From Candidatus Heimdallarchaeota archaeon (lineage in GTDB: Archaea; Asgardarchaeota; Heimdallarchaeia; Heimdallarchaeales; Heimdallarchaeaceae), in assembly GCA_030668875.1 (NCBI GenBank), contig DAOVER010000008.1:30001-62000 (forward strand): a stretch of 32,000 nt of DNA. The letters are read 5' to 3'. A program made the position numbers and the translations under genes. Shown piece after piece: positions 15,432 through 27,445 of this stretch (within the stretch, counting starts at the first letter, position 1; each line of letters starts with the position of its first letter). The notes below the pieces were generated by a model. It was not told where the DNA came from and searched no databases. It was given only the letters and a program-made list of their open reading frames with translations.

Positions 15432-16835
15432 TTATAATTCTTTGAGGACTCGTCGAAAATCATTCAGCCATCTTGCTGCTTGGAATTCGAGTTTTTCACA
15501 ATCTTCCTCCTTTATGACCTCTTCAGGTTTGTATTTACCAACAATTTCACGCCAATTATTGATATCTCCAATGACCCAATGGTCTTCAGGAATTGATGGG
15601 AATGTTTTGAGTATGTGTATCATCTCATCCATATCTGCTAGTAGTAAATCTGCCCTAGCTACTGAACGAAGTCTAGTTAAATCAATCAACTCAATTGCAG
15701 AAGAAACAAAATCCGCAGTTTTTGAGGGCATTTTCTTCAACGAGTCAAAGGGTATGGATACTGCGTCAGCAGTTTCAACTCCTTCAGCTACACGGAGATG
15801 TCGAATGCCTTTAGGATATTTGTTATCTAGTTTTTCTTTTTTGATAAAGTTTTCAAGTTGGAACCCAACTTTCTCTAGCTGCATTCGTGATTTGAAAATA
15901 CTTCTAATAAGAGAACGTAATTGCTTTCTATATGCAATTTGATCTATTTCATTATTTTCATAACTCTTAGCAAGATTATCAAGTGTTACAATTGAAGCAT
16001 AAAGATTAGCTTCTAATTCGAGGTTTTTTTCATCTAGTTTTGACATGCTACCACTCGCTTTGACGTGATTATGATGTTTTTCAGCTTTATAACCATTTTT
16101 AGAGTACCGTTTATATAGCTTTAGGAAATCCACAGTTGTCATGTCACCATCTTCAAATTTCTCTTGGAGTACTTCTAGGGTTTCTTGAACTGCATAGCTC
16201 TCAGCTTTAAGATTTTCTTCTAATGAGATTGATATTTCTTTGTCTGATCTATCAACTTCGATACCACCTTCTTTTAGTAAAGAGGCTCTTTCTTTCTCAA
16301 TTTTTCTACTTATGTCGTCAATCTTTGTTTGATAGTCCATTACTGTATCTTCTATTTCCCGTTTTTCAGTCTCTATAGGAGCTTCTTTTTTAGTTGCTAC
16401 CATTTCAATTTGAGGAAGTTGTCTAACAGGGATGGTAGCTCTCTGTAGTCCAGAATATCTTTCTTTTTTCTTTGATCTCTTTGTTTTATATGGTTTAGCT
16501 GGAACCCGGGTAAAAAGCTGTTTTGTATCACTAATTACATCATGAACATGATAATTTCTATTCCATTCCGCTAGTATTTTCATAACCAATGTTCCATCAT
16601 CATCAGTATTTGGATGATTCACCTTTGGTGTAATATCAACAAAAGGTGCTATATCAGGGAACCCGTCTTGAATGAAAATATTTGCAAAGATAGGAATTTC
16701 AGTTCCTTCAATTGTTCCTACATAACCTTTCCAATGTTTAAGGTTACCTCTTACAGGTTCGAATCCTGTTGCATTTTCATATATTAATTGCGTTTCATTT
16801 GCAAGGATGTAATCATCAGTAGATATCTGTCTCAC
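15432..16835 (-). CDS. ESCRT-I fusion protein: UEV (E2-like, no catalytic Cys) + coiled coil + Vps23 steadiness box + full Vps28
   Basis: UBC fold with FPDIAP.V...HPNTDDDGTLVMKILAEW; steadiness box AESYAVQETLEVLQEKFEDGDMTTVDFLKLYKRYS; Vps28 N-part NLYASIVTLDNLAKSYENNEIDQIAYRKQLRSLI; CTD TADFVSSAIELIDL...RWLNDFRRVL. Confidence 0.88.
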   Translation of the reverse strand: MRQISTDDYILANETQLIYENATGFEPVRGNLKHWKGYVGTIEGTEIPIFANIFIQDGFPDIAPFVDITPKVNHPNTDDDGTLVMKILAEWNRNYHVHDVISDTKQLFTRVPAKPYKTKRSKKKERYSGLQRATIPVRQLPQIEMVATKKEAPIETEKREIEDTVMDYQTKIDDISRKIEKERASLLKEGGIEVDRSDKEISISLEENLKAESYAVQETLEVLQEKFEDGDMTTVDFLKLYKRYSKNGYKAEKHHNHVKASGSMSKLDEKNLELEANLYASIVTLDNLAKSYENNEIDQIAYRKQLRSLIRSIFKSRMQLEKVGFQLENFIKKEKLDNKYPKGIRHLRVAEGVETADAVSIPFDSLKKMPSKTADFVSSAIELIDLTRLRSVARADLLLADMDEMIHILKTFPSIPEDHWVIGDINNWREIVGKYKPEEVIKEEDCEKLEFQAARWLNDFRRVLKEL

Positions 16836-16922
16836 CTTATTCTATTTCTCTCTATAAAATGATGACAATGAAACTTTAAAAAACATTGCATTCAATTTGT
16901 CAAATTAAAGTTGAAATCTGAC

Positions 16923-17927
16923 CTATCTTGTTATTTGAAGGATAATTTTTATCGGCTTTGCAAGATTGTTATCTAAAACGAATACGGTTTCTTTCCCCTT
17001 AGAGAGAGAATCTTTGATTAAACTAGTAGAATCTAATAATTTGCCTTTCATCATTAACTCTGGTTTTTTCAATCCATAAGTTAAAGCTAACCGAACTTCT
17101 AATTCTTTTACTGTTTCTTTTGAATGAGCTACAAACTCTATTTGCTCAAGTTTGTACAAATCTCCGCAAGTAGGACATTCTTCAGATCGAACCAATTCCA
17201 AAATGGTAGTTGCATTATTTAATCCATCATAAAAGAGATAATTACAAAGACTATTCCCAATATTCAGTATCAGTTTCAAAGCTTCTTGAGCCATGATACC
17301 TCCAACAATTGCTGATAATGTCGCTACAGCTGGAAGAGGAGGTTCTTCTTCGATTTCCTCTCTTTCCTTTTTCCTTTCCTCACCAAAAGGCGTACAGGCT
17401 TGAGCTAACTCTTCTTCAGGAACCAAAGGTTGGCATTCAAAACACGCTGTTTCGTAAGGAATAATAACTTGAGCATTCCCTAAAAAAGCAAACATGCCTC
17501 CTGTGACTAATGGTATTTTCATTCTAACGGCCATTGAATTGATCCATCTACGTCCAAGAAACGTATCTAAACAGGAGACAATTACATCTGCCTCTTCATA
17601 TACTGATATGGAAACTTTTTCCATCTTTTTATGATAGAATTCGATGTCTACTGTTGGATTTAATTCCTTCAATCTCTTAGCAGCAGTTTCTGATTTGGAA
17701 TTTCCTACATCACTATCACGAAATAATAGTTGTCTATTGAGATTGGATGTTTCTATCGTGTCAAAATCTATTATTACTAGTTTACCAATTCCTGAAGAAG
17801 CAAGAATGGTTCCTACATAACTACCAATAGCACCAACTCCAACAAGAAGCACTGTGCTATCTGAAAGAGTATCCTGGTTCCATCCCGGTATCAACTGCTG
17901 TCTAGAGTAGCGAACATCATCCGTCAT
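16923..17927 (-). CDS. Ubiquitin-activating enzyme E1 (ThiF/UBA family) with C-terminal ubiquitin-fold domain
   Basis: RYSRQ, VGVGAIG nucleotide loop, DFDTIETSNLNRQ, zinc pairs CFEC and CPTC, catalytic Cys in ACT. C-terminal ~75 aa have a beta-grasp pattern (TVKELEVRL...LMMKGKLL). Start likely ATG 17927 (MTDDVRY). Confidence 0.92.
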   Translation of the reverse strand: MTDDVRYSRQQLIPGWNQDTLSDSTVLLVGVGAIGSYVGTILASSGIGKLVIIDFDTIETSNLNRQLLFRDSDVGNSKSETAAKRLKELNPTVDIEFYHKKMEKVSISVYEEADVIVSCLDTFLGRRWINSMAVRMKIPLVTGGMFAFLGNAQVIIPYETACFECQPLVPEEELAQACTPFGEERKKEREEIEEEPPLPAVATLSAIVGGIMAQEALKLILNIGNSLCNYLFYDGLNNATTILELVRSEECPTCGDLYKLEQIEFVAHSKETVKELEVRLALTYGLKKPELMMKGKLLDSTSLIKDSLSKGKETVFVLDNNLAKPIKIILQITR

Positions 17928-18082
17928 TAAATCACAAGCCAACGATATGGTACTATTTGTTGCTGATATATGTTTCTTTTTGAACAGCTAAAAACAATAT
18001 TGAAAACTCTGAACAATAAAATTAGATAAAATACCAATAAATGCTATTAAAAATATAAAGAAGAAAAGGACTTAGATTTGAA

Positions 18083-18319
18083 TTAATAACCGCCTTTAGT
18101 TCTGGCAATCAGATAACATTTGTCTCCATCCATCATACCAGTTTGCTTCAAAATATCACTATCATCTAATTGTTTTCCATGAAAAACGATAATCACGGTA
18201 TTAGCTGGAATCTTTTTCTTTTTCGAAACTTCTCTCTTTAATTGTGCTACTGTTGATTGTGGATCCACATCCAGCTCCAATGACCCTCCACCTATTGCGG
18301 TAACGACACTAATTCTCAT
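18083..18319 (-). CDS. Ubiquitin (pro-form ending GG-Y)
   Basis: SD AGGTGA 8 nt before ATG 18319; 78 aa. TVAQLKREV, VFHGKQLDD (eukaryotic IFAGKQLED), C-terminus LIARTKGGY-stop (aaa ggc ggt tat taa). Confidence 0.93.
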   Translation of the reverse strand: MRISVVTAIGGGSLELDVDPQSTVAQLKREVSKKKKIPANTVIIVFHGKQLDDSDILKQTGMMDGDKCYLIARTKGGY

Positions 18320-18584
18320 TTCAGTTTTCACCTGTACTTTTCTAGTTTTATTATTGACTTATTCATTATTAAAGCTTGTCAAATGATTTCAAATTTTATT
18401 TTGCTTTACCTCCCCTCACTATCTCTGCAATTTATCAGAATTTTCAGTTGATAACACATGCTGATATTCTCTATGTATTATGACATCTTAACTATGAGAT
18501 TATGGTTTTCAAGATAGGTAGACCTGATTAGTAGCTAATTATTTCTACCTAAAACAATGTAAAATGCAAGTAAGGGGTGCTTAA

Positions 18585-18878: not shown

Positions 18879-19268
18879 TCAATCAACAGTTCTCTCTTTC
18901 TCTCCCTTTCTTTTAATTGTGATCGATGAAGGTATGCCTTCGATTTCTCTTTCAAGTTTCTTTATTCCTAATCTAGTTATTTGCTTACCTTCCATATAGC
19001 CTATTTTGACCATATAAAGCAGATTTTTGAAAATAGTTTCAGCAGTCATTTTCTTATTATGATTATCATAGAGACTATGCCAATAATCATAAGCTTCTGG
19101 AACTAAGAAGAACTTCATCAGTGCTAATTTATCTTTCTCTTCAACACTAGCTGGAGCTTGCTCAGATTTTTTTAGTTCTTCCATCCTCTGCTTTCTCAGA
19201 TTGGCAATTTCAAGAAGCTCTTGAGTCTTTTTCTTTCGAATTTTGTCTAACTCATCATCTGTAGTCAT
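18879..19268 (-). CDS. PDCD5-related (dsDNA-binding protein family) protein
   Basis: DDELDKIRKKKTQEL N-terminus, FLVPEA...(cf. ILTPEA), KQIT...KKL and ITIKRK C-terminus follow the archaeal PDCD5 family pattern; divergent in the middle. Confidence 0.6.
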   Translation of the reverse strand: MTTDDELDKIRKKKTQELLEIANLRKQRMEELKKSEQAPASVEEKDKLALMKFFLVPEAYDYWHSLYDNHNKKMTAETIFKNLLYMVKIGYMEGKQITRLGIKKLEREIEGIPSSITIKRKGEKERTVD

Positions 19269-19432
19269 AAGTTCCTCAGCAAATCCAATGGTAAAAGCTA
19301 GTTATTAAGTTTATTTTTACCTAACTCTAATGACATTAATATTGTTCAATAAATACAATTCAAAAAAGATTTTCTATTAAACTAAAATATTTTTTTGAAT
19401 TATTCTAATGGTTATATATCTCAAGAAAGCTG

Positions 19433-20359
19433 CTAGATCACTATGCCAATAAACCAGAGTAGAAATGCTAAGACCATAAATATTGAAGCACTATTAAAAA
19501 TAATTTTTGTAGTTTTTTCAGTTGGTTTGATGAGGTTCATAATTGAAAGACCTATTAAGATAAGTACAGCTAAAATAATCAAGATATTGATAACAACGTA
19601 AAGGTCAAGAAGAGTGCTGATAACAATAGCTGTGATTGAGCTAATGAGTGAGGACATTGTTATCACAATAATGGTTTCTTTTTTACTTCTCACTACAGGC
19701 CACATTGGCACTTCTGCATTTTTGTAACCTTCCAATGTTTTCGGTAACAATGCAAGTGTAAGAATATGCAAAGGTATCCATGATAATATGAAAACTCCCA
19801 TGAGAATTGCGATTAAATCAATCCGTCCAGTAAACACAACTCTTCCAGCAATTGCAGGTAATCCTCCTGCAACTCCACCAAAAATAATGGAAAAATGAGT
19901 TCTTCTTTTCAACCACATTGAATAGATTACTATATCAAAAAAGAACCCTAGAAAAATTATGATCATAGCTGTTAGGTTAAGAAAAACACCCGCAAACAAG
20001 ATTCCGGAAACGGTATAGAGAAGCCCATGTCCTAAAACAGACAGAGGTGATATCTTGCCACTAGGAAGTGCTCTATCTTTAGTCCGTTCCATTTTTTTAT
20101 CTATGTCCATATCAATATACATGTTTAACAGAGTTGTACCAGATACCGCTAAAAACATGGAAAAAAGAAGCCATAAACTATCAGAAAGTGAAATGGTAGG
20201 ATAAGCAGATATTAGGTATGCTAACATTGAAGTAAAAACCAGTAATATGGTTTGCTTCTCTTTTATTAAACCTAGATATAAACGAAGATGTAGGAACCTA
20301 TCATTTGTGGTTCCTACTTTCTCTTCAGTTATAACGGGATATTGATCTGGGCTAGCCAT
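19433..20359 (-). CDS. cyoE: Heme O synthase (protoheme IX farnesyltransferase)
   Basis: LIKEKQTILLVFT, LNMYIDMDIDKKMERTKDRALPSG (UbiA/CyoE motif), YSMWLKRRT, GGVAGGLPAIAG, WIPLH. Confidence 0.93.
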   Translation of the reverse strand: MASPDQYPVITEEKVGTTNDRFLHLRLYLGLIKEKQTILLVFTSMLAYLISAYPTISLSDSLWLLFSMFLAVSGTTLLNMYIDMDIDKKMERTKDRALPSGKISPLSVLGHGLLYTVSGILFAGVFLNLTAMIIIFLGFFFDIVIYSMWLKRRTHFSIIFGGVAGGLPAIAGRVVFTGRIDLIAILMGVFILSWIPLHILTLALLPKTLEGYKNAEVPMWPVVRSKKETIIVITMSSLISSITAIVISTLLDLYVVINILIILAVLILIGLSIMNLIKPTEKTTKIIFNSASIFMVLAFLLWFIGIVI

Positions 20360-20379
20360 ATTTCATTTTCCTTTAATAT

Positions 20380-21882
20380 TTATTGTTCTATTTCCTTACT
20401 TCTATCTCCTTTTAGAATCTTGACTAATTGATATATACAGAAACTACCTATTGCTGCAAATAGTGCCATTACTCCTATATCAGTTATTATCATGGCAAAT
20501 GAACTATTATAATCGACCATCATGTAATATAAGGCAGCTCCAAATCCCACTAAACTACCGACTGTGACGAACCATCCTATTATTGTGCGCAACACACCCT
20601 TCATATTTATGTAATCTATATAGAAAAGTAAAACCATCATTGCAGTTAAAGTAGCTAAAACATGCCAATGTCCTGACGCAAAGGTGCGTTCTTGAATCCA
20701 AGATTTAGACCTAACATAATCTAGATTAAGTGCAGTATAAACTCCAGGAGCTGTTACCACAAAGTTAACCCAAATGAAGAGCCAGTAAAGACCGAAGTTT
20801 ACAGAATCTTTGAAGACGGATATAAAACGCTTCCAAATAGATGCTGTCTCATAATTTTCTCCGAGAACCTTTTTGCTAATCTGTATAAATCCAAATATAA
20901 CTAAAATCAGACTAGCAGATAACAAGAAAGCTGCGCCTACATTGATGATTACATGGGCATCCTCGTAACCAGGAACAACTAACCAAGCTCCAATAGATGT
21001 AATCAAAGTTCCAGGGATTATTAGGATTTGAGCCACAAGGTACCATAATTTAGTGACCTTAATGCGACGAAATACTATCAATAGTACCGCTACATCTATC
21101 ATAGCTAGCATGTTATGAAGATGAGCTATAATCATACGGAGATAAGGCAAAGTCTCATGTTCAAATCTAAGCCAATCTTCTGCTAAAAAAGGAAAAGAAA
21201 ACACTTGCATCCAAGGAGAAGAAAACACTTGTGGTGAATCTATAAATAGTCCTTGCGAATTACCAATATTTGCTCCTACATAAGCTGCTATTGAGGCTGT
21301 AATTAATAAGCAAAAAGCTACTAACATTATATTTAGCTGTTCTAGGTTTAATCTTCCTAAATAAGAACCATCTTTGTTTTTCTCATAATCAGGGAAATTC
21401 TTTGTTGGGACGGTCCCAATAAGCAAAACCACACCACCATAGAAAACTAGACAAAGTCCAAGAATAAAAAAAGCATGAGCAATCATATTCCGTTGTAATA
21501 TATATGCAAAAGTCAAACCCATTGTTGAAGTTAGTAGAGAACCAACTAGAATTGGCCATTTAATATGGGGCTTAAACTTCTCCCGTACATTGCAAGTATC
21601 CAAAACTAAGAAAACAACAGCTGCCAAAAATGGCATCGCGAGTGAGTGATATAACATTATGATTCGACTAAATTGAAATGCATCGTCTAACACAATAGGG
21701 ATTAATGGTTTACCAAAAATCTCTATGATTGGTTGTGAAAAAGTACCAAGGAAAAGGATAGCTAGGGTTAAATAAGCGATTATTAACGTAACTAATCCTT
21801 TGTAGGTACCAAAACCATACTTAAGCATACCTTGAAATCGACCAGTAAATGTCTTTCCTTTATCAGATTCTTTATTTGACAT
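20380..21882 (-). CDS. Polytopic His-rich membrane protein with three internal 4-TM repeats; distant heme-copper-oxidase-fold homolog
   Basis: 500 aa, about 12 hydrophobic segments. Three alignable units carry LYH, AHLH and GHWH, each followed by G[ST]L[LIV] about 35 aa later. Lies 20 nt upstream of cyoE. Confidence 0.6.
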   Translation of the reverse strand: MSNKESDKGKTFTGRFQGMLKYGFGTYKGLVTLIIAYLTLAILFLGTFSQPIIEIFGKPLIPIVLDDAFQFSRIIMLYHSLAMPFLAAVVFLVLDTCNVREKFKPHIKWPILVGSLLTSTMGLTFAYILQRNMIAHAFFILGLCLVFYGGVVLLIGTVPTKNFPDYEKNKDGSYLGRLNLEQLNIMLVAFCLLITASIAAYVGANIGNSQGLFIDSPQVFSSPWMQVFSFPFLAEDWLRFEHETLPYLRMIIAHLHNMLAMIDVAVLLIVFRRIKVTKLWYLVAQILIIPGTLITSIGAWLVVPGYEDAHVIINVGAAFLLSASLILVIFGFIQISKKVLGENYETASIWKRFISVFKDSVNFGLYWLFIWVNFVVTAPGVYTALNLDYVRSKSWIQERTFASGHWHVLATLTAMMVLLFYIDYINMKGVLRTIIGWFVTVGSLVGFGAALYYMMVDYNSSFAMIITDIGVMALFAAIGSFCIYQLVKILKGDRSKEIEQ

Positions 21883-22123
21883 ATCTTAAGTGCCGCCTTT
21901 ATTTTTCATCAAGTATTTACTTCGCATATATTACTTTTTTGTAAATATCTCAAATGTTGGTCTCCATTTTGTTGGAAATACGATTCCAAGAGAAATCAAA
22001 GCACTTACGATAAGAAGCGAACTTGGTAATACTATGAAAATTATTTCACCTAATTACGTTTCTTAAACATGAATTTTGAAGCGAATGTAAACTCTTTCCA
22101 ATAATCTGTTTATAAAAGTATTA

Positions 22124-22145
22124 AGTGTGCAAACTTGAGCACACT
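22124..22145. promoter_or_regulatory. Inverted repeat AGTGTGC-N8-GCACACT, candidate operator in the divergent promoter region
   Basis: Perfect 7-bp arms in an AT-rich 354-bp intergenic region between divergent membrane-protein genes. Confidence 0.35.
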
Positions 22146-22236
22146 GGCTAATGAGGGCGTATAGTAATATTATTCGGAGAAACTTTAAAAATCTAAAGAA
22201 TAAAACACGCTAACTCGATTTATTTGAGGTTAATAT

Positions 22237-22956
22237 ATGAAAAGAAAAATTACAACATTAATTGTTTTTGAGAGTCTTGCAGCGTTTATAGGTATAGTAA
22301 GTGCAAAAGGAAGTAGTTGTCCTACATTTAGTCCAACTACTGATACAACTAGCCCTCTTTATGTAATGAACGAATTGCAATGGGTTTTCATATTAACAAC
22401 ACTCCTCACTTACGTAGCAGCAATAGCTTCAGGAGGACTAATTTGGGCATTAATCTCTAAGCAGTCATGGTTCTATCCTGTAGCAGTAATTACAAGTATT
22501 ATTGGTATTGGAAGTGGATTAGTACCTTCTCTATTAGTGATACTAAATGGAATGGCTTTTTCTCCTTCTCTAATGAGAACTGTTGTTTATGGAATCGTTC
22601 TAATTCTATTATTACTTCCTCCGTTCTATGAACTTAGATTCAAAACTTCTTATGGAGATTCAAAAGATTCTACTGAAAACAATTCTAAACCAGAAAAAGT
22701 AGAAATAATAGACGCTAAGACTAGTATAGTATCCGCCATTTCCCTAATAGTGATGAGCATTGGAGTAGGCTTATTTATTCTGCCGTTTATGGTTACATCT
22801 TCTCATATCATAAATGGGGTAAACTATTTCACTAATGGGTCTCTTTACACATACTTTGGAATTGCTTTAATGTTGGCAAGTGTTATCCTCTTTGTATCTT
22901 ATACTTATCTGCAAAGATTGTCTACATCCAAAAATAAGAACAGAATTTCAATTTAA
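22237..22956 (+). CDS. Hypothetical multi-pass membrane protein
   Basis: Signal-like N-terminus, short Cys-containing loop (GSSCPTFSP), 5-6 further hydrophobic helices; SD gaggt upstream. Confidence 0.75.
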   Translation: MKRKITTLIVFESLAAFIGIVSAKGSSCPTFSPTTDTTSPLYVMNELQWVFILTTLLTYVAAIASGGLIWALISKQSWFYPVAVITSIIGIGSGLVPSLLVILNGMAFSPSLMRTVVYGIVLILLLLPPFYELRFKTSYGDSKDSTENNSKPEKVEIIDAKTSIVSAISLIVMSIGVGLFILPFMVTSSHIINGVNYFTNGSLYTYFGIALMLASVILFVSYTYLQRLSTSKNKNRISI

Positions 22957-23031
22957 AAAGAGCTGAAAAAGTTTAATGGCTCTTCACTCACTGTTTTTTT
23001 TCATTTTTTCTTGTTTGGAGAAATATAGTCT

Positions 23032-23739
23032 CTAATCTTTGTTTATAGGCAATAATTTGTCTACCGGTGGGTATCTTGTGAGTATATTATATTTTTCTGC
23101 GTACCTAACTCCACACTTTAACCCATTTGATCGTCTTCCAATATCTATCCAGTCATCAACTTGTTGCCAGTTGTAAAAATCTCCATAGAGTTTTGCAACT
23201 TTTCTGACCTTATCAAAATTTTCTGATACATCCACATATACAGTGGGTAATGAAGATAATTCTTCATGATACGTGAAAATTGGAATGTGTAAAGGTGGTC
23301 TATAAGCATCAAGGGGTTCAGTTATTTTTGGAATGCGGGCATATGTTAAAGCGTCATAAAGGATGTTTGTTGTTCCTCTATGGTCAGGATGTCTAGTGTT
23401 CATTGACCAAGTAATAATTGCATCTGTTTTTACTTCTGCTATTACTTTTGCCATTTTTAGAGCACTCTCTCTTGTAGATCTGACAGAAGTGTCTCCATAC
23501 CCTAAAAACATAGTTTCACAACCAACAATTGTTCCAACAGCTTCACCTTGATTTTCTCTGATTTTCTTAATCTTATCAAAGGGCATATCATTAAAATGTG
23601 ATGCCATTTCACCACTTGTTGTCCAAGCTAAAACAACTTGATCTCCTTTACCAACATGATTTGAAAGTGTACCAATACATCCAATCTCATCGTCTGGATG
23701 TGCAAAACATGCCAGAATAGTTTTTATCTCATCTGTCAT
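23032..23739 (-). CDS. PIG-L/LmbE family N-acetylglucosaminyl deacetylase (BshB1-like)
   Basis: FAHPDDE and HPDH metal-binding motifs, WTTSGEM, YAEKY tail. Start likely ATG 23739. Confidence 0.9.
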   Translation of the reverse strand: MTDEIKTILACFAHPDDEIGCIGTLSNHVGKGDQVVLAWTTSGEMASHFNDMPFDKIKKIRENQGEAVGTIVGCETMFLGYGDTSVRSTRESALKMAKVIAEVKTDAIITWSMNTRHPDHRGTTNILYDALTYARIPKITEPLDAYRPPLHIPIFTYHEELSSLPTVYVDVSENFDKVRKVAKLYGDFYNWQQVDDWIDIGRRSNGLKCGVRYAEKYNILTRYPPVDKLLPINKD

Positions 23740-23895: not shown

Positions 23896-24522
23896 ATGTA
23901 TAGTGATGAGCAAAGACAAAGAATTGCAAGAATCATAGAATTACCTATCCCAATGGAATTTTTTGATATGCTAGAAGATCTTGTTTCACACTATGGAAGT
24001 CCAGAAAGAGCAATTTTAGAAGCAATAAAATCTCATCACAAAGAGCAATTTGGTACTTTGGATGATTTCAAACTAACTCAGACAACTCCCCCGGAAAGAG
24101 TTTATCGACTGATAAATCATATGAATTCTCCTGTTACTGAAGGAAAATTAACCAAAATAATAGAAAATGGGAAGAAATTTGAAGAAAAAACCCAGAGAGA
24201 TTTGGCTAAGGTAGATAAATTGATAGATCAGCTTAGTGATTTACCTGCTCTCTCTGAATTAAAAGAGGAGATTTCTTCAATGAAAACAATGATAAAGAAT
24301 ATCGAAACCACAACGTTTGCCGCGCCTCGAACAAGAGGTCCCAGAGCAGATCTATCTTCATTAGATGTGAGTCTCTCTGAATCTCAGGATAATCTTCTTG
24401 ATGCACCTGATAGACCTTTATTAGAATCTGTTTTGGATAGTGTTTTGCTTTTTGATGATGATTATGAAGAACAAAATAACACGGAGAAAGAAAAAACAAA
24501 GGGTGAAAAAAAGAAAGGTTAA
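23896..24522 (+). CDS. Hypothetical protein: RHH-like N-terminus, coiled coil, acidic tail
   Basis: RIIELPIPMEFFDMLEDLVSHYGSPERAILEAIK fits a ribbon-helix-helix pattern; heptads LAKVDKLIDQLSDL...LKEEISSMKTMIKNIE. Start ATG 23896 with agagg SD. Confidence 0.6.
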   Translation: MYSDEQRQRIARIIELPIPMEFFDMLEDLVSHYGSPERAILEAIKSHHKEQFGTLDDFKLTQTTPPERVYRLINHMNSPVTEGKLTKIIENGKKFEEKTQRDLAKVDKLIDQLSDLPALSELKEEISSMKTMIKNIETTTFAAPRTRGPRADLSSLDVSLSESQDNLLDAPDRPLLESVLDSVLLFDDDYEEQNNTEKEKTKGEKKKG

Positions 24523-25061
24523 TCCATCTCTTTAGCTCGTTCAACTAATTCTTCAGCTATTTTTAAAAATGCTTCATCTACATGTTTTCCCGACAAAGCA
24601 CTTGTTTTGAAATATATTTTACTTTTAATTTTCTTGTTCATATCTTCACATTCCGACTCGGAAGTTGCTCTCTCCTTTTGGAGGTCGTCTTTGTTTCCTA
24701 CTAGAATTTTTACAACTTTGGAACCACAATTATCAATGAACTCTTTATCCCATTTTTTAATGTCTTTCAGAGTTGTTGAGCGTGTTAAATCGAAAACAAG
24801 AAGTGCGGCCTTTGCACCTTTGTAGAAAGTAGGTCTGATTAAGCGAAATCTATCTTGTCCCGCTAAATCCCAGATGGAGAAAGCTACTTTTGTGCCATCT
24901 TTAAGAGTTAAATGTTTTTCCGATGGTTCCATACCAATTGTCATCAAGTAACTGGAATCAAATCGATCGTGAACAAATCTCTGTACCAGACTGGTTTTTC
25001 CAACAGCTGCACTACCAAGAAGAAGAATCTTAAAATTATAATCTGGTTGGGATCTACTCAT
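24519..25061 (-). CDS. Rab-like small GTPase (Ras superfamily)
   Basis: G1 GSAAVGKTS, G2 TIG, G3 WDLAGQDRF, FYKGA, G4 GNKDD, G5 TSAL; no C-terminal prenylation Cys. Confidence 0.95.
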   Translation of the reverse strand: MSRSQPDYNFKILLLGSAAVGKTSLVQRFVHDRFDSSYLMTIGMEPSEKHLTLKDGTKVAFSIWDLAGQDRFRLIRPTFYKGAKAALLVFDLTRSTTLKDIKKWDKEFIDNCGSKVVKILVGNKDDLQKERATSESECEDMNKKIKSKIYFKTSALSGKHVDEAFLKIAEELVERAKEMD

Positions 25062-25062
25062 T

Positions 25063-25375
25063 CTATAGCTCCATTAACGTTTTTAGCAAACTATCTAATT
25101 CTTCTTTCAAGCTTTCTAAATAAAACTTTTCGAAGTTCCCCTCTGATCTTTGAATGGTTGAAAGAGATGTGCATAAATCTAATAATTTCTCATAGTTTTC
25201 ACTCTCTTCAGGTTTTGCAATGTAATTATTGAATTTTTTCAAGGTTTTCTTGGCTAAAGAAGAAGCTGTCTTTTTGTTAATAGCTCCACTTTCATAAGCT
25301 TTGATTACATTCTGCGTCCAGCTTGCAACAGATTTGAGGTCAGTAATTTCAGTTAGGGGAGAAATATCACTCATA
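25063..25375 (-). CDS. Small helical hypothetical protein directly upstream of the GTPase
   Basis: ORF 25063..25434 is entirely helical in character; stop is 1 nt before the GTPase ATG. True start is uncertain (TTG 25434 or the internal MSDISPL ATG near 25375). Confidence 0.6.
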
Positions 25376-25639
25376 ACAAATAAGGCATGGGAACTAACTT
25401 TAATATACATTTTGCTAGAGAGTGAAAAAACCAATTAAAAAAATAAAAAACAATAGGAGACAGATATCAATCTTGAAAGATAAGAGAAATCAATAATTTA
25501 TATGCCAGGAATATCTTTGAAGAACTTCTTCTGTGATATTTTTTAACTATTTTTCTAATTTATTGGTTTCCTAATATCTTTACATAGTGGATATTCAATT
25601 TTGATTCCAAAATTGGTAATACTTCTAAAGAAATATTTG

Positions 25640-25747: not shown

Positions 25748-27445
25748 ATGAGTAAAAGAAAATTATTCTTCTGGTGTATGGTTATTATTCTTTCAACAAT
25801 CTCAATGAAATCTGTTTTCTTTGGTAGAAATGCCATCGCAAAGGAACCGTCAGATAATAACGTAAATGTTGGTTTAACACTTGATGACCATGATCCAATT
25901 CTCATAGATCACGATGATGATTTTACAACTTTGGGTTTTGCTGGTAATGGAACAGAATATAACCCTTACTTAATAGAGAATCTGAGCATAATTGCTTTTG
26001 GTCAACCCGCAATGGAGATAATGTTTACAACAAAGTTTTTTGAAATTAGAAATTGTTATATTAACGCTCCTATGCAAAACATTAAACTCTATTCTATAGC
26101 AAGTGGAACTGTTAAAATTCTAAACAACATTATTGATGACAGTTTTGCAGGAATTTTTGTTGAAAGTACACACAATATTACTTTCTTCAATAATTCTATA
26201 AGTTACAATTTTTATGGAATTGATATAAGGAATTCGTTTAATTGCAATTTGTCACATAATAAATTTTTTGATAGCATAAGATATGGAATTCGCGCAGATA
26301 ATGCAAAATCTATACAGGTGAGGCATAATTATTTTTATAATAGTGGTTTAGAAATCAGGAATCTTTCTCTTCAAGAATATTTAGAATGTCTGATTATCGA
26401 TAATTTCGTTGAAGACAAACCATTAGCATTTATTACAAATACCGTTGATACTGTCATCACTACTCCTGACTATGGGCAAATTATACTTGTAAATTGTACC
26501 AATCTAAACATCTCCAACCAAATTTTGAATAATGGAGGTATTGGCTTTCATCTCATATATTGTGAACAAATTGCGTTGTATAATAATCAACTATATGAGA
26601 ATTTTAGGGGGATCTTAATCGAGGAATCGAATAAAATAAGTGTTGAAAACAACACCATTAGAGGCAACGCATACTTTGGGATAGAGTTCACTCAATCAGA
26701 TTACTGCCAATTTGTAAATAATACTTTTTATGACCAATCTACATGTATTCGATTAGTAGAAGGTAGTTCAGCTTGGATTCACAATAATTCTTTCATTGAA
26801 TGTTCTGCGTCTCTTTTTATTTATAATACAAGCTCAACAATAATAACAAATAACACGTTTTTCAAATGTCAAGGCAGAATTATTTACTTGGTATACACCA
26901 ATTACTCATTTATTGCACATAACATTATTCAAATTAGTGACTTAGGTTTTGTGTTAAAAGATTCACACTTTAATGTTTTTTATCATAATCTTATTCAAGA
27001 ATGTGTGAGTTATGCTGTATCTATTGGAGAAAATTCTCATAATAATACGCTATATCTTAACACGTTTTTTGAGAATAATCACTTATCTGATTGGCAAGCT
27101 GAGGATTTTGGACTGAACAATTGTTGGTACAATGAGACGACACATCTAGGCAACTACTGGTCCGATTGGTCAGGAACTGGCTCTTATTCCATCGGTGGTT
27201 CATCCAGTTCAGTAGATCTTTATCCTCTCCTCTTCCCTTCCATTACTCCTCTAATAGATGAGTTTTCTATGGTTCTTTCCCTCCCTATCTTTCTCTTATT
27301 GGTCTCTCTTACCTATCTGATATTAAAAGTAAAACACAAAAAAATGAAAAAACTTGTTATTTTTGTTGAGAAAAGAAAAAATCAAGAAAAAAATAAAAAA
27401 GCGTTCATTTTTAATTCAATGTTTTTGATTAAAGGAGAATATTAG
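25748..27445 (+). CDS. Secreted, membrane-anchored right-handed parallel beta-helix (NosD/PbH1) protein
   Basis: Signal peptide; DHDPILID...[14 protein letters not shown]; many I.N N.I..N..GI repeats; GNYWSDW...DLYPL; C-terminal TM helix with basic tail. Confidence 0.9.

Follow-up and report, generated by a model that had tools for sequence, protein, structure and literature searches.

What would use haem O in an archaeon whose genome holds a gene for a haem O synthase-like protein and in which the familiar oxidase subunits are not found? The question is raised by a stretch of 32,000 nucleotides (below, the window, with position 1 as its first letter) from the genome of a Candidatus Heimdallarchaeota archaeon (contig DAOVER010000008.1; genome G000, 92% complete). 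Three intact open reading frames (ORFs) stand together here: HCOL, an unannotated membrane protein of 500 amino acids (aa) whose residue numbers are used throughout; CtaBL, a haem O synthase-like prenyltransferase encoded downstream of HCOL on the same strand after a 20-bp gap; and F2, a smaller membrane protein encoded in the divergent orientation (Table 1). We propose that the three genes form the functional cassette of an undescribed, deep-branching member of the haem-copper oxidase (HCO) superfamily, a haem O-dependent redox enzyme that would act on O2 and/or NO at low levels. We give this account about an even chance of being right. Its support comes from the predicted fold of HCOL, from residue conservation, from gene linkage and co-occurrence across genomes, and from the gain and loss of the three genes as a unit.

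The fold is the point of departure. HCOL has no match in Pfam or NCBIfam at E <= 0.1. Its AlphaFold2 model (pLDDT 88.3, pTM 0.89) consists of 12 transmembrane (TM) helices in three sets of four. In an exhaustive VIA structural comparison, the top 10 matches to the model are all catalytic subunits of HCOs or nitric oxide reductases (NORs), with Z scores of 15-21.4, and the next match has a Z score of 12. Specifically, CcoN (3MK7 chain A) gives Z 21.4 with a root-mean-square deviation of 3.9 Å over 392 residues, NorB (4XYD chain A) gives Z 20.1 over 380 residues, and bo3, caa3, ba3, and qNOR give Z 15-19. Foldseek matches the model to HCO subunits only, and in the ESM Atlas it matches a cbb3-type COX1 cluster. 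By its predicted structure, HCOL belongs to the HCO structural superfamily, which agrees with the proposal of the first-pass annotation, made from the DNA letters and their ORFs, that the protein is a relative of HCO subunit I. The HxH-bearing units of HCOL also align with the canonical TM9-12 unit in profile-profile comparison (E 7e-4 and 2e-3), a weak direct signal at the level of sequence.

Other identities found no foothold. A profile search against PDB sequences returned only a weak MrpB-like stretch (E 0.003) that we judged to be TM-helix noise. A haem A synthase (COX15/CtaA), considered because the protein encoded beside ctaB has His pairs on helices of the TM2/TM4 type, was rejected, given that HCOL has no PF02628 match and has 12 TM helices in the HCO arrangement, not an 8-TM two-bundle. 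The profile of NnrS (PF05940), a haem/copper membrane protein that also has 12 TM helices, gave no match to HCOL at E <= 0.1, and Pfam scans of the individual 4-TM units of HCOL gave nothing significant. We note that DUF423 and DUF2871, two families that consist of a single 4-TM unit, can be superposed on one HCOL repeat unit (residues 358-498) with template-modelling scores of 0.74 and 0.64, respectively, by the small protein. A DUF423 gene (L057:10594-10986) lies two genes downstream of a fusion of HCOL to an FGE-sulfatase domain, and hhalign of DUF423 against the HCOL units is non-significant. On the models, this likeness may be a lead to a pre-triplication ancestor of the oxidase fold.

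The HCOL family is small and spans two domains. It comprises 104 clusters in a collection of 5.8 billion proteins and 124 representatives at E <= 0.001 among 1.84 billion. Members on the archaeal side are labelled Heimdall-, Hod-, Thor-, and Odinarchaeota, and those on the bacterial side are labelled Anaerolineae/Thermoflexia (Chloroflexota). The nearest homologues of the HCOL studied here carry the label Heimdallarchaeaceae.

Do the histidines of this family sit where an oxidase would need them? His residues occur in HCOL at positions 79, 106, 136, 242, 254, 256, 310, 405, and 407. Nine motifs that the first-pass annotation had quoted begin at residues 73, 113, 135, 249, 290, 309, 399, 441, and 463; these motifs, the three ORFs, and the hand-counted His positions all proved correct against the ORF list and a motif search of the translation. 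H79, H136, H254, H256, H310, H405, and H407 are invariant in 32 HCOL sequences, as are R73, Y78, E235, W300, N373, R391, E398, and W406, and the G000 protein keeps every family-invariant residue. In a wider set of 118 sequences that includes the most distant relatives, H79, H254, and H405 are present in 118/118, H407 in 117, H256 and H310 in 115, and H136 in 112. The expectation that the His set is conserved is thus borne out, at 95-100% for the seven residues. The three most divergent members lose H256 and H310 jointly.

The spacing of these residues is collinear with that of the ligands of an Asgard A-type COX1 (Table 1). Helix positions together with positive-inside loops put every conserved His within the outer membrane half, where HCOs have theirs too. 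H79 on TM2 and H405/H407 on TM10, 99-100% conserved, occupy positions collinear with the HCO haem ligands, as the first reading of the sequence had held for the TM II His and the TM X HxH. Around H310, the local motif W..HVIINVG faces W.HHMYTVG of COX1 in one non-significant full-length profile alignment, and H310 probably stands for one His, the first, of the TM VII "HH" pair that binds CuB. Read from sequence in this way, HCOL appears to fill five of the six canonical HCO ligand positions and to depart from the canonical three-His CuB set. A CuB or FeB site is recognized by a TM VI His together with a TM VII HH; HCOL has an HxH on TM6 and a single His at the HH position. At most two His can therefore face the distal site, unless other residues join them.

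By analogy with HCOs, we infer that H79 and one His of H405/H407 would be the bis-His pair of a low-spin haem and that the other TM10 His would ligate a second haem. This second haem would face a modified distal site in which one TM6 His and H310 would be what is left of the CuB/FeB site. H136 and the remaining TM6 His would be additions without counterpart in known HCOs, and three-fold logic would place them in the pore that known oxidases leave empty.

The three-fold logic has a basis in the sequence. The first-pass annotation had divided HCOL into three alignable 4-TM units, and the 12 helices do fall into three sets of four whose profiles align pairwise: U2 with U3 at E 4e-6 (probability 87%, HLH on HWH), U1 with U3 at E 5e-5 (YH on WH), and U1 with U2 at E 1.5e-3 (H136 on H310). 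As a control, the same procedure was applied to 16 canonical HCO subunits (Asgard A-type, divergent Asgard HCOs, and one Thermoflexia COX1), where C1 aligns with C3 at E 1.2e-8 and C2 with C3 at E 1.8e-5. Given that the repeat of the control is equal or stronger, the sequence-level repeat is a property of the whole superfamily and is not special to HCOL. The suggestion that HCOL is more symmetric than its relatives therefore holds for the His pattern, which has an HxH on TM6 as on TM10 and a His at the start of TM4 as of TM8, but not for the sequence repeat.

A link to haem O comes from the neighbouring gene. CtaBL matches PF01040 (E 5e-43) and scores 197.3 bits on TIGR01473, against a cut-off of 210.3 and far above every other UbiA model; other members of the HCOL-linked CtaB clade reach up to 225 bits, above the cut-off. 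CtaBL has in common with COX1-linked CtaB the motif N..D.DID..M.RT..R, K151/R152, W194, P196, H198, and Y212, and it carries the clade-specific substitutions Q36, D142, S157, R173, L200, and W220. In a maximum-likelihood tree, all HCOL-linked CtaB copies, two bacterial ones included, form one clade (support 100/99) apart from the COX1-adjacent copies, and where a genome has both types of oxidase, it has two paralogues of CtaB.

The two genes also travel together. Among 300 evenly drawn Asgard genomes, HCOL is present in 53, a CtaB-like gene in 61, and COX1 in 22. CtaB is found in 50 of the 53 HCOL genomes, and the three exceptions hold HCOL fragments only. Conversely, 11 genomes have CtaB without HCOL; seven of these have COX1, and the remaining four, with neither, belong to two families, in one of which sister genomes have a weak HCOL-like ORF of 462 aa. 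HCOL and CtaB occur without COX1 in 36 of the 300, G000 among them. Gene order is equally regular: in nearly all genomes in which both genes were found, HCOL comes first and CtaB follows on the same strand, no more than a few hundred bases away, and in 24 loci studied in detail, CtaBL is present in 20 and immediately downstream of HCOL in 18. The coupling of HCOL to a co-oriented cyoE, claimed from this locus alone, is supported in Asgard genomes by co-occurrence, by adjacent same-strand genes, and by a separate CtaB clade. The same annotation had noted no subunit II gene nearby; in G000 as a whole, neither COX1 nor COX2 was found. At a Thermoflexia locus (L056:5225-8344), a canonical COX1 (542 aa, PF00115) lies 147 bp upstream of HCOL on the same strand, with NDH-2, Crp, ferredoxins, and a hemerythrin/DUF438/PAS protein as neighbours.

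What is the third gene? The F2 family has six predicted TM helices and invariant C28 and H190, and the F2 encoded here is 35% identical to a protein at an Odin-labelled locus. F2 adjoins HCOL in 14 of the 24 loci. It is present in 29 of the 300 Asgard genomes, all of them HCOL carriers (29/53, against 0/247 non-carriers), and these carriers span six taxonomic families, with the caution that related genomes are not independent. The F2 model (pLDDT 82) matches only generic four-helix bundles, the best at Z 13.4, which is not above the background for helical proteins; a shape search in the Atlas gave only template-modelling scores < 0.35, and a feature search there gave only unnamed Chloroflexota clusters (0.87). 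A complex prediction of HCOL, F2, and three haems scored 0.00 and carries no information on binding either way. Strict co-occurrence, together with the joint gain and loss described below, gives genetic support to the earlier suggestion that the 239-aa protein is a likely partner. On these patterns, F2 is a candidate accessory subunit or assembly factor.

Within the genus, the three genes are one insertion/deletion unit. Genomes of the genus without the cassette lack exactly CtaBL, HCOL, and F2. In G183 and G198, blastn pieces put window position 19318 about 14 bp from position 23027, in G273 the interval is about 108 bp, and G225, G068, G045, and G115 show the same 19318/23027 junction by coordinates. 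Three close relatives display intermediate states. G153 has a deletion of 19776-23282 that leaves a CtaBL stub, G204 has cassette fragments only, and G301 retains the cassette at 84-87% identity. In G301, however, the HCOL orthologue (L047, C295, 1764-3217) switches reading frame between codons 112 and 115, which may be a true frameshift or an assembly error. In G204 (L051, C117, 491-3208), an unrelated insert of about 2.7 kb separates window positions 18886 and 18887, just outside the degraded cassette. Between G000 and G301, dN/dS is 0.21 for HCOL and 0.17 for CtaBL. The shared gain and loss, combined with these ratios, indicate an accessory module that purifying selection maintained through most of its history and that is now being lost in the genus. 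The cassette also carries a trace of a fourth gene. Specifically, in the 354-bp spacer upstream of HCOL, tblastn with F3 proteins finds 47-70% identity over 27-30 aa (E down to 2e-9); F3 is a protein of 6-7 TM helices encoded intact directly upstream of HCOL in nine other loci.

Table 1. Features of the cassette (window positions) and His residues of HCOL beside their collinear counterparts in Asgard A-type COX1 (residue numbers)
Feature	Position	Strand	Length	Basis
CtaBL, haem O synthase-like UbiA prenyltransferase	19433..20359	-	308 aa	ORF; PF01040 and TIGR01473 match
HCOL, unannotated 12-TM protein, predicted HCO/NOR subunit I fold	20380..21882	-	500 aa	ORF; AlphaFold2 model
F2, 6-TM membrane protein, divergently oriented	22237..22956	+	239 aa	ORF; alignment
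Relic of the last TM helix of an F3-family gene	21943..22047	-		tblastn of F3 proteins
Cassette boundaries	19319..23026	.		segment missing from most same-genus genomes (blastn)
TM2 His	HCOL 79; COX1 78			collinear spacing
TM6 His	HCOL 254/256; COX1 249			collinear spacing
TM7/8 His	HCOL 310; COX1 298/299			collinear spacing
TM10 His	HCOL 405/407; COX1 384/386			collinear spacing

Loci in other genomes place HCOL among redox genes. In loci of families f14 and f27 the gene order is F6 - HCOL - CtaBL - F7 - F8 - F9. F6 (L035:7252-7761, with homologues in L036-L041), immediately upstream of HCOL, has a signal peptide, an ectodomain, and a C-terminal TM anchor. The structural neighbours of this ectodomain in the Atlas include desulfoferrodoxin-domain clusters (template-modelling scores 0.57/0.78 and 0.43/0.60), and its motifs H..HY and CN.QG resemble the Fe site of superoxide reductase with the final His replaced by Gln. 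F7 has 4-5 TM helices and four conserved His, with leads to cytochrome b561/ferric reductase-like proteins; F8 is a GlcD-like flavin adenine dinucleotide (FAD) subunit; and F9 is a 2x[4Fe-4S] + 2xCCG subunit of the HdrD/TfrB/GlcF type. By these resemblances, F7-F8-F9 (L035:10617-14061, downstream of CtaBL) looks like a membrane-bound dehydrogenase module of the 2-hydroxyacid type. Thor-type loci contain HxlR regulators, an MFS transporter, Ccm genes, and multihaem cytochromes. Bacterial HCOL loci contain Crp, NDH-2, ferredoxins, hemerythrin/DUF438/PAS proteins, a flavodiiron-like protein, and fusions of HCOL to FGE-sulfatase domains. Such neighbours fit, but do not prove, a membrane redox enzyme that receives its electrons from dehydrogenases and is linked to stress from oxygen or nitrosative agents. 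One locus (L036, G263:C18) has two HCOL paralogues of 439 and 511 aa with F6, F2, and F3 genes between them.

Taken together, the proposed enzyme would work as follows. CtaBL would farnesylate salvaged haem b to haem O for HCOL, and the use of farnesylated haem from cyoE, already put forward in the first-pass annotation, is plausible. F2 would be dedicated to HCOL, either as an accessory subunit or as a factor in its assembly. The complete complex would act as a redox enzyme in the membrane and unload electrons onto a small oxidant, most plausibly trace O2 and/or NO, which it would detoxify or scavenge in Asgard archaea and Chloroflexota that are otherwise anaerobic.

Several observations weigh against this proposal. 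HCOL has no significant sequence match to PF00115 (COX1), and hhalign of the full-length protein against Asgard and Thermoflexia COX1 gives a non-significant probability of 2-4% with a register that shifts between runs; the ligand mapping therefore rests on collinearity. HCOL contains no HH dipeptide, and across positions 240-320, which cover TM6 and TM7, no position has Tyr at a frequency above 38%. Given the absence of HH, of a cross-link Tyr, and of subunit II, canonical four-electron O2 chemistry is not expected. By profile match, by CuB ligand set, and by Tyr, HCOL is outside every described HCO family. The first-pass annotation had the CuB motif replaced by a second HxH: the missing HH, the missing conserved Tyr, and the second HxH on TM6 all stand, but the motif is not simply replaced, since H310 lies at the HH position by spacing and by motif. 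Linkage to CtaB is also looser in bacteria. Among five bacterial contigs examined (four distinct loci), two have no UbiA gene within 7 kb of HCOL, and the expected conservation of the cyoE neighbourhood across archaea and bacteria is therefore seen in Asgard genomes but only in part in bacteria. Finally, the cassette is dispensable in the genus, being absent, deleted, or frameshifted in relatives.

Haem supply adds to these difficulties. The G000 genome has polyprenyl synthases, and in it we found no ALAD (HemB), porphobilinogen deaminase (HemC), CtaA, Ccm, or cytochrome bd. Without ALAD or HemC, haem would have to be imported or salvaged. ALAD is rare throughout the 300 Asgard genomes, being present in 18, in 7 of the 53 HCOL carriers (absent from 46), and in 12 of the 22 genomes with COX1. 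In family f5, ALAD is present in 1 of 21 sampled genomes, and the f5 loci examined have, next to HCOL, gene families of the Ccm system along with a family of cytochromes; the member of the latter at the Odin locus has multihaem cytochrome c Pfam matches. Haem salvage thus seems to be normal in these lineages. The low ALAD counts reflect either widespread haem auxotrophy with salvage or some other route. Missing ALAD is no argument against the use of haem, but it does sustain one of the rival explanations, to which we now turn.

That rival is that HCOL stores, chaperones, or moves haem, either salvaged haem or haem O made by CtaBL, in organisms that cannot make their own, with F2, F3, and MFS proteins as helpers. 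The absence of ALAD from G000 and from 46/53 carriers speaks for such a role, as do the CcmABC, CcmE, and CcmF genes that flank HCOL in several loci and the frequent MFS transporter neighbour. Conserved TM His are typical of haem-handling proteins such as CcmC, CcmF, and CcsA, so the His set would not be out of place. However, the predicted fold is that of an HCO catalytic subunit and unlike any known haem-handling protein, G000 has no Ccm system, and in the 36 carrier genomes that have no other known haem O consumer, a chaperone would be left without a client. The dehydrogenase modules of the f14 and f27 loci, moreover, better fit electron transfer, and we regard haem handling as quite unlikely. 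Another rival is electron transfer without catalysis. In keeping with the Cu-free, possibly multi-haem relative of HCO put forward in the first-pass annotation, HCOL could be an all-haem, more symmetric cytochrome without Cu in which two or three bis-His haems, with H79-H407, H405-H254, and H256/H136/H310 as their ligand sets, form an electron conduit that has no binuclear centre and runs transmembrane or laterally from cytoplasmic dehydrogenases to extracellular or periplasmic acceptors, e.g., multihaem cytochromes. The symmetric arrangement of HxH on TM6 and TM10 and of His starting TM4 and TM8 suits a conduit, as does the HCOL sequence in having neither HH nor a conserved Tyr; the strictly invariant His 79, 254, 405, and 407 could by themselves give two bis-His haems; and donors and acceptors are on hand in the iron-sulfur (Fe-S)/FAD dehydrogenase of the f14/f27 loci and in the Ccm and multihaem cytochrome c genes of the f5 loci. 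Against it, H310 fits the position and motif of a CuB ligand and is lost together with H256, a behaviour that looks like that of a separate metal site and not of a haem ligand. FGE-sulfatase fusions and oxygen- or NO-type bacterial neighbours hint at small-molecule chemistry, and G000 has no cytochrome c machinery to receive the electrons. We consider the conduit unlikely.

The last rival concerns G000 only. Whatever the family does elsewhere, the cassette could be a recently acquired passenger, now functionless and heading for loss. The clean-junction absence from most genomes of the genus, the deletion in G153, the fragments in G204, and the frameshift near codon 113 in G301 all point in this direction, and the upstream F3 is already a relic in a genome with no haem biosynthesis. 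Yet the three ORFs are intact and all family-invariant residues are kept in G000, dN/dS against G301 is 0.17-0.21, and a full-length copy of HCOL, 82% identical, exists in a different metagenome (P0004). The G301 frameshift, for its part, may be an assembly error. A functionless passenger is in our estimate very unlikely, and the haem O-dependent redox enzyme is the explanation we prefer.

The cassette lies in an Asgard setting. An Asgard ubiquitin/ESCRT cluster adjoins it at window 15432-18331, with genes for a 467-aa UEV/E2-Vps23-Vps28 fusion (ESCRT-I), a 339-aa ThiF/E1-like protein, and an 82-aa ubiquitin-like ORF; this flank is kept in 23/23 genomes of the genus at 68-90% identity. At window 24519-25434, a Ras-family small GTPase (180 aa, PF00071 E 3.5e-46) is followed 1 bp away by an unannotated 123-aa ORF. 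A 565-aa ORF at window 25748-27445 has numerous short Asn/Ile/Phe-rich repeats and a hydrophobic C-terminal segment, and to judge from its sequence it looks like a parallel beta-helix surface protein. Marine-sediment metagenomes contain DNA near-identical to the window (four DNA runs, which may be its source, and one with a small share), and the sequencing-run search listed no RNA runs containing it.

The published surveys of Asgard archaea that could be searched have counted terminal oxidases by COX1 and cytochrome bd only (10.1101/2024.07.04.601786; 10.1101/2025.02.26.640444; 10.1101/2025.11.07.685452), and one of them reports haem O biosynthesis genes across Heimdallarchaeia with no consumer stated (10.1101/2024.07.04.601786). 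In the searchable literature, the Asgard oxygen papers included, we found no description of the HCOL family. This family would supply a haem O consumer in the 36 of 300 sampled genomes that have it without COX1. More broadly, the cassette suggests that close relatives of eukaryotes have a haem-dependent redox enzyme that has yet to be described. If HCOL reduces O2 or NO, annotation underestimates how widely the archaeal relatives of eukaryotes tolerate oxygen or nitrosative stress. Being very divergent, the family is also useful for comparison in studies of how the respiratory haem-CuB site evolved. We can speculate further, on a reading that we ourselves find unlikely, that HCOL survives from a branch of the oxidase superfamily that is pre-copper or alternative, one that would use haem O without CuB and hold a cofactor in all three pseudo-symmetric pores (three haems, or two plus a 2-His metal site). 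Many "strictly anaerobic" Asgard archaea, some of them from lineages close to eukaryotes, would then have a hitherto unseen means of reducing O2, NO, or another oxidant. If true, this would change the story of the origin of haem-copper oxidases and the view of oxygen tolerance at eukaryogenesis. With three genes, the cassette is small and expressible, so the question of function is directly testable.

How does HCOL compare with the systems already known? The nearest in predicted structure are CcoN (3MK7) and NorB (4XYD, 3O0R), with which the 12-TM three-arc fold of the model aligns end to end. HCOL resembles them in its TM2 His, TM10 HxH, TM6 His, and TM7/8-junction His at matching spacing, and it resembles NOR in having no cross-link Tyr. 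HCOL differs in sequence, with about 10% identity and no PF00115 match, and in its His set, which has one His in place of the HH pair, an extra TM6 His that makes the HxH, and an extra conserved TM4 His. It differs, too, in its partners: there is no gene for CcoO/CcoP, NorC, or a CuA subunit, and there is instead a putative haem O synthase of its own, while the haem of cbb3 and cNOR is haem b.

The A- and B-type oxidases (E. coli bo3 CyoB, 1FFT/6WTI; T. thermophilus ba3, 1EHK) match the HCOL model at Z 17.8-19.1 and Foldseek template-modelling scores of about 0.5-0.56, and bo3 shares with HCOL the genetic coupling to a haem O synthase, cyoE. Unlike these oxidases, HCOL has no HPEVY or HH motif, apparently no D/K channel motifs, and no subunits II/III/IV, and its CtaB partner belongs to a different clade. 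CtaBL, for its part, has the UbiA fold family, the catalytic Asp-rich motif, and the other invariant residues of CyoE/CtaB/COX10 (TIGR01473). It departs from them in scoring 197 against 210 bits, in its clade-specific substitutions, and in belonging to a clade of its own, whose members accompany HCOL in both archaea and bacteria.

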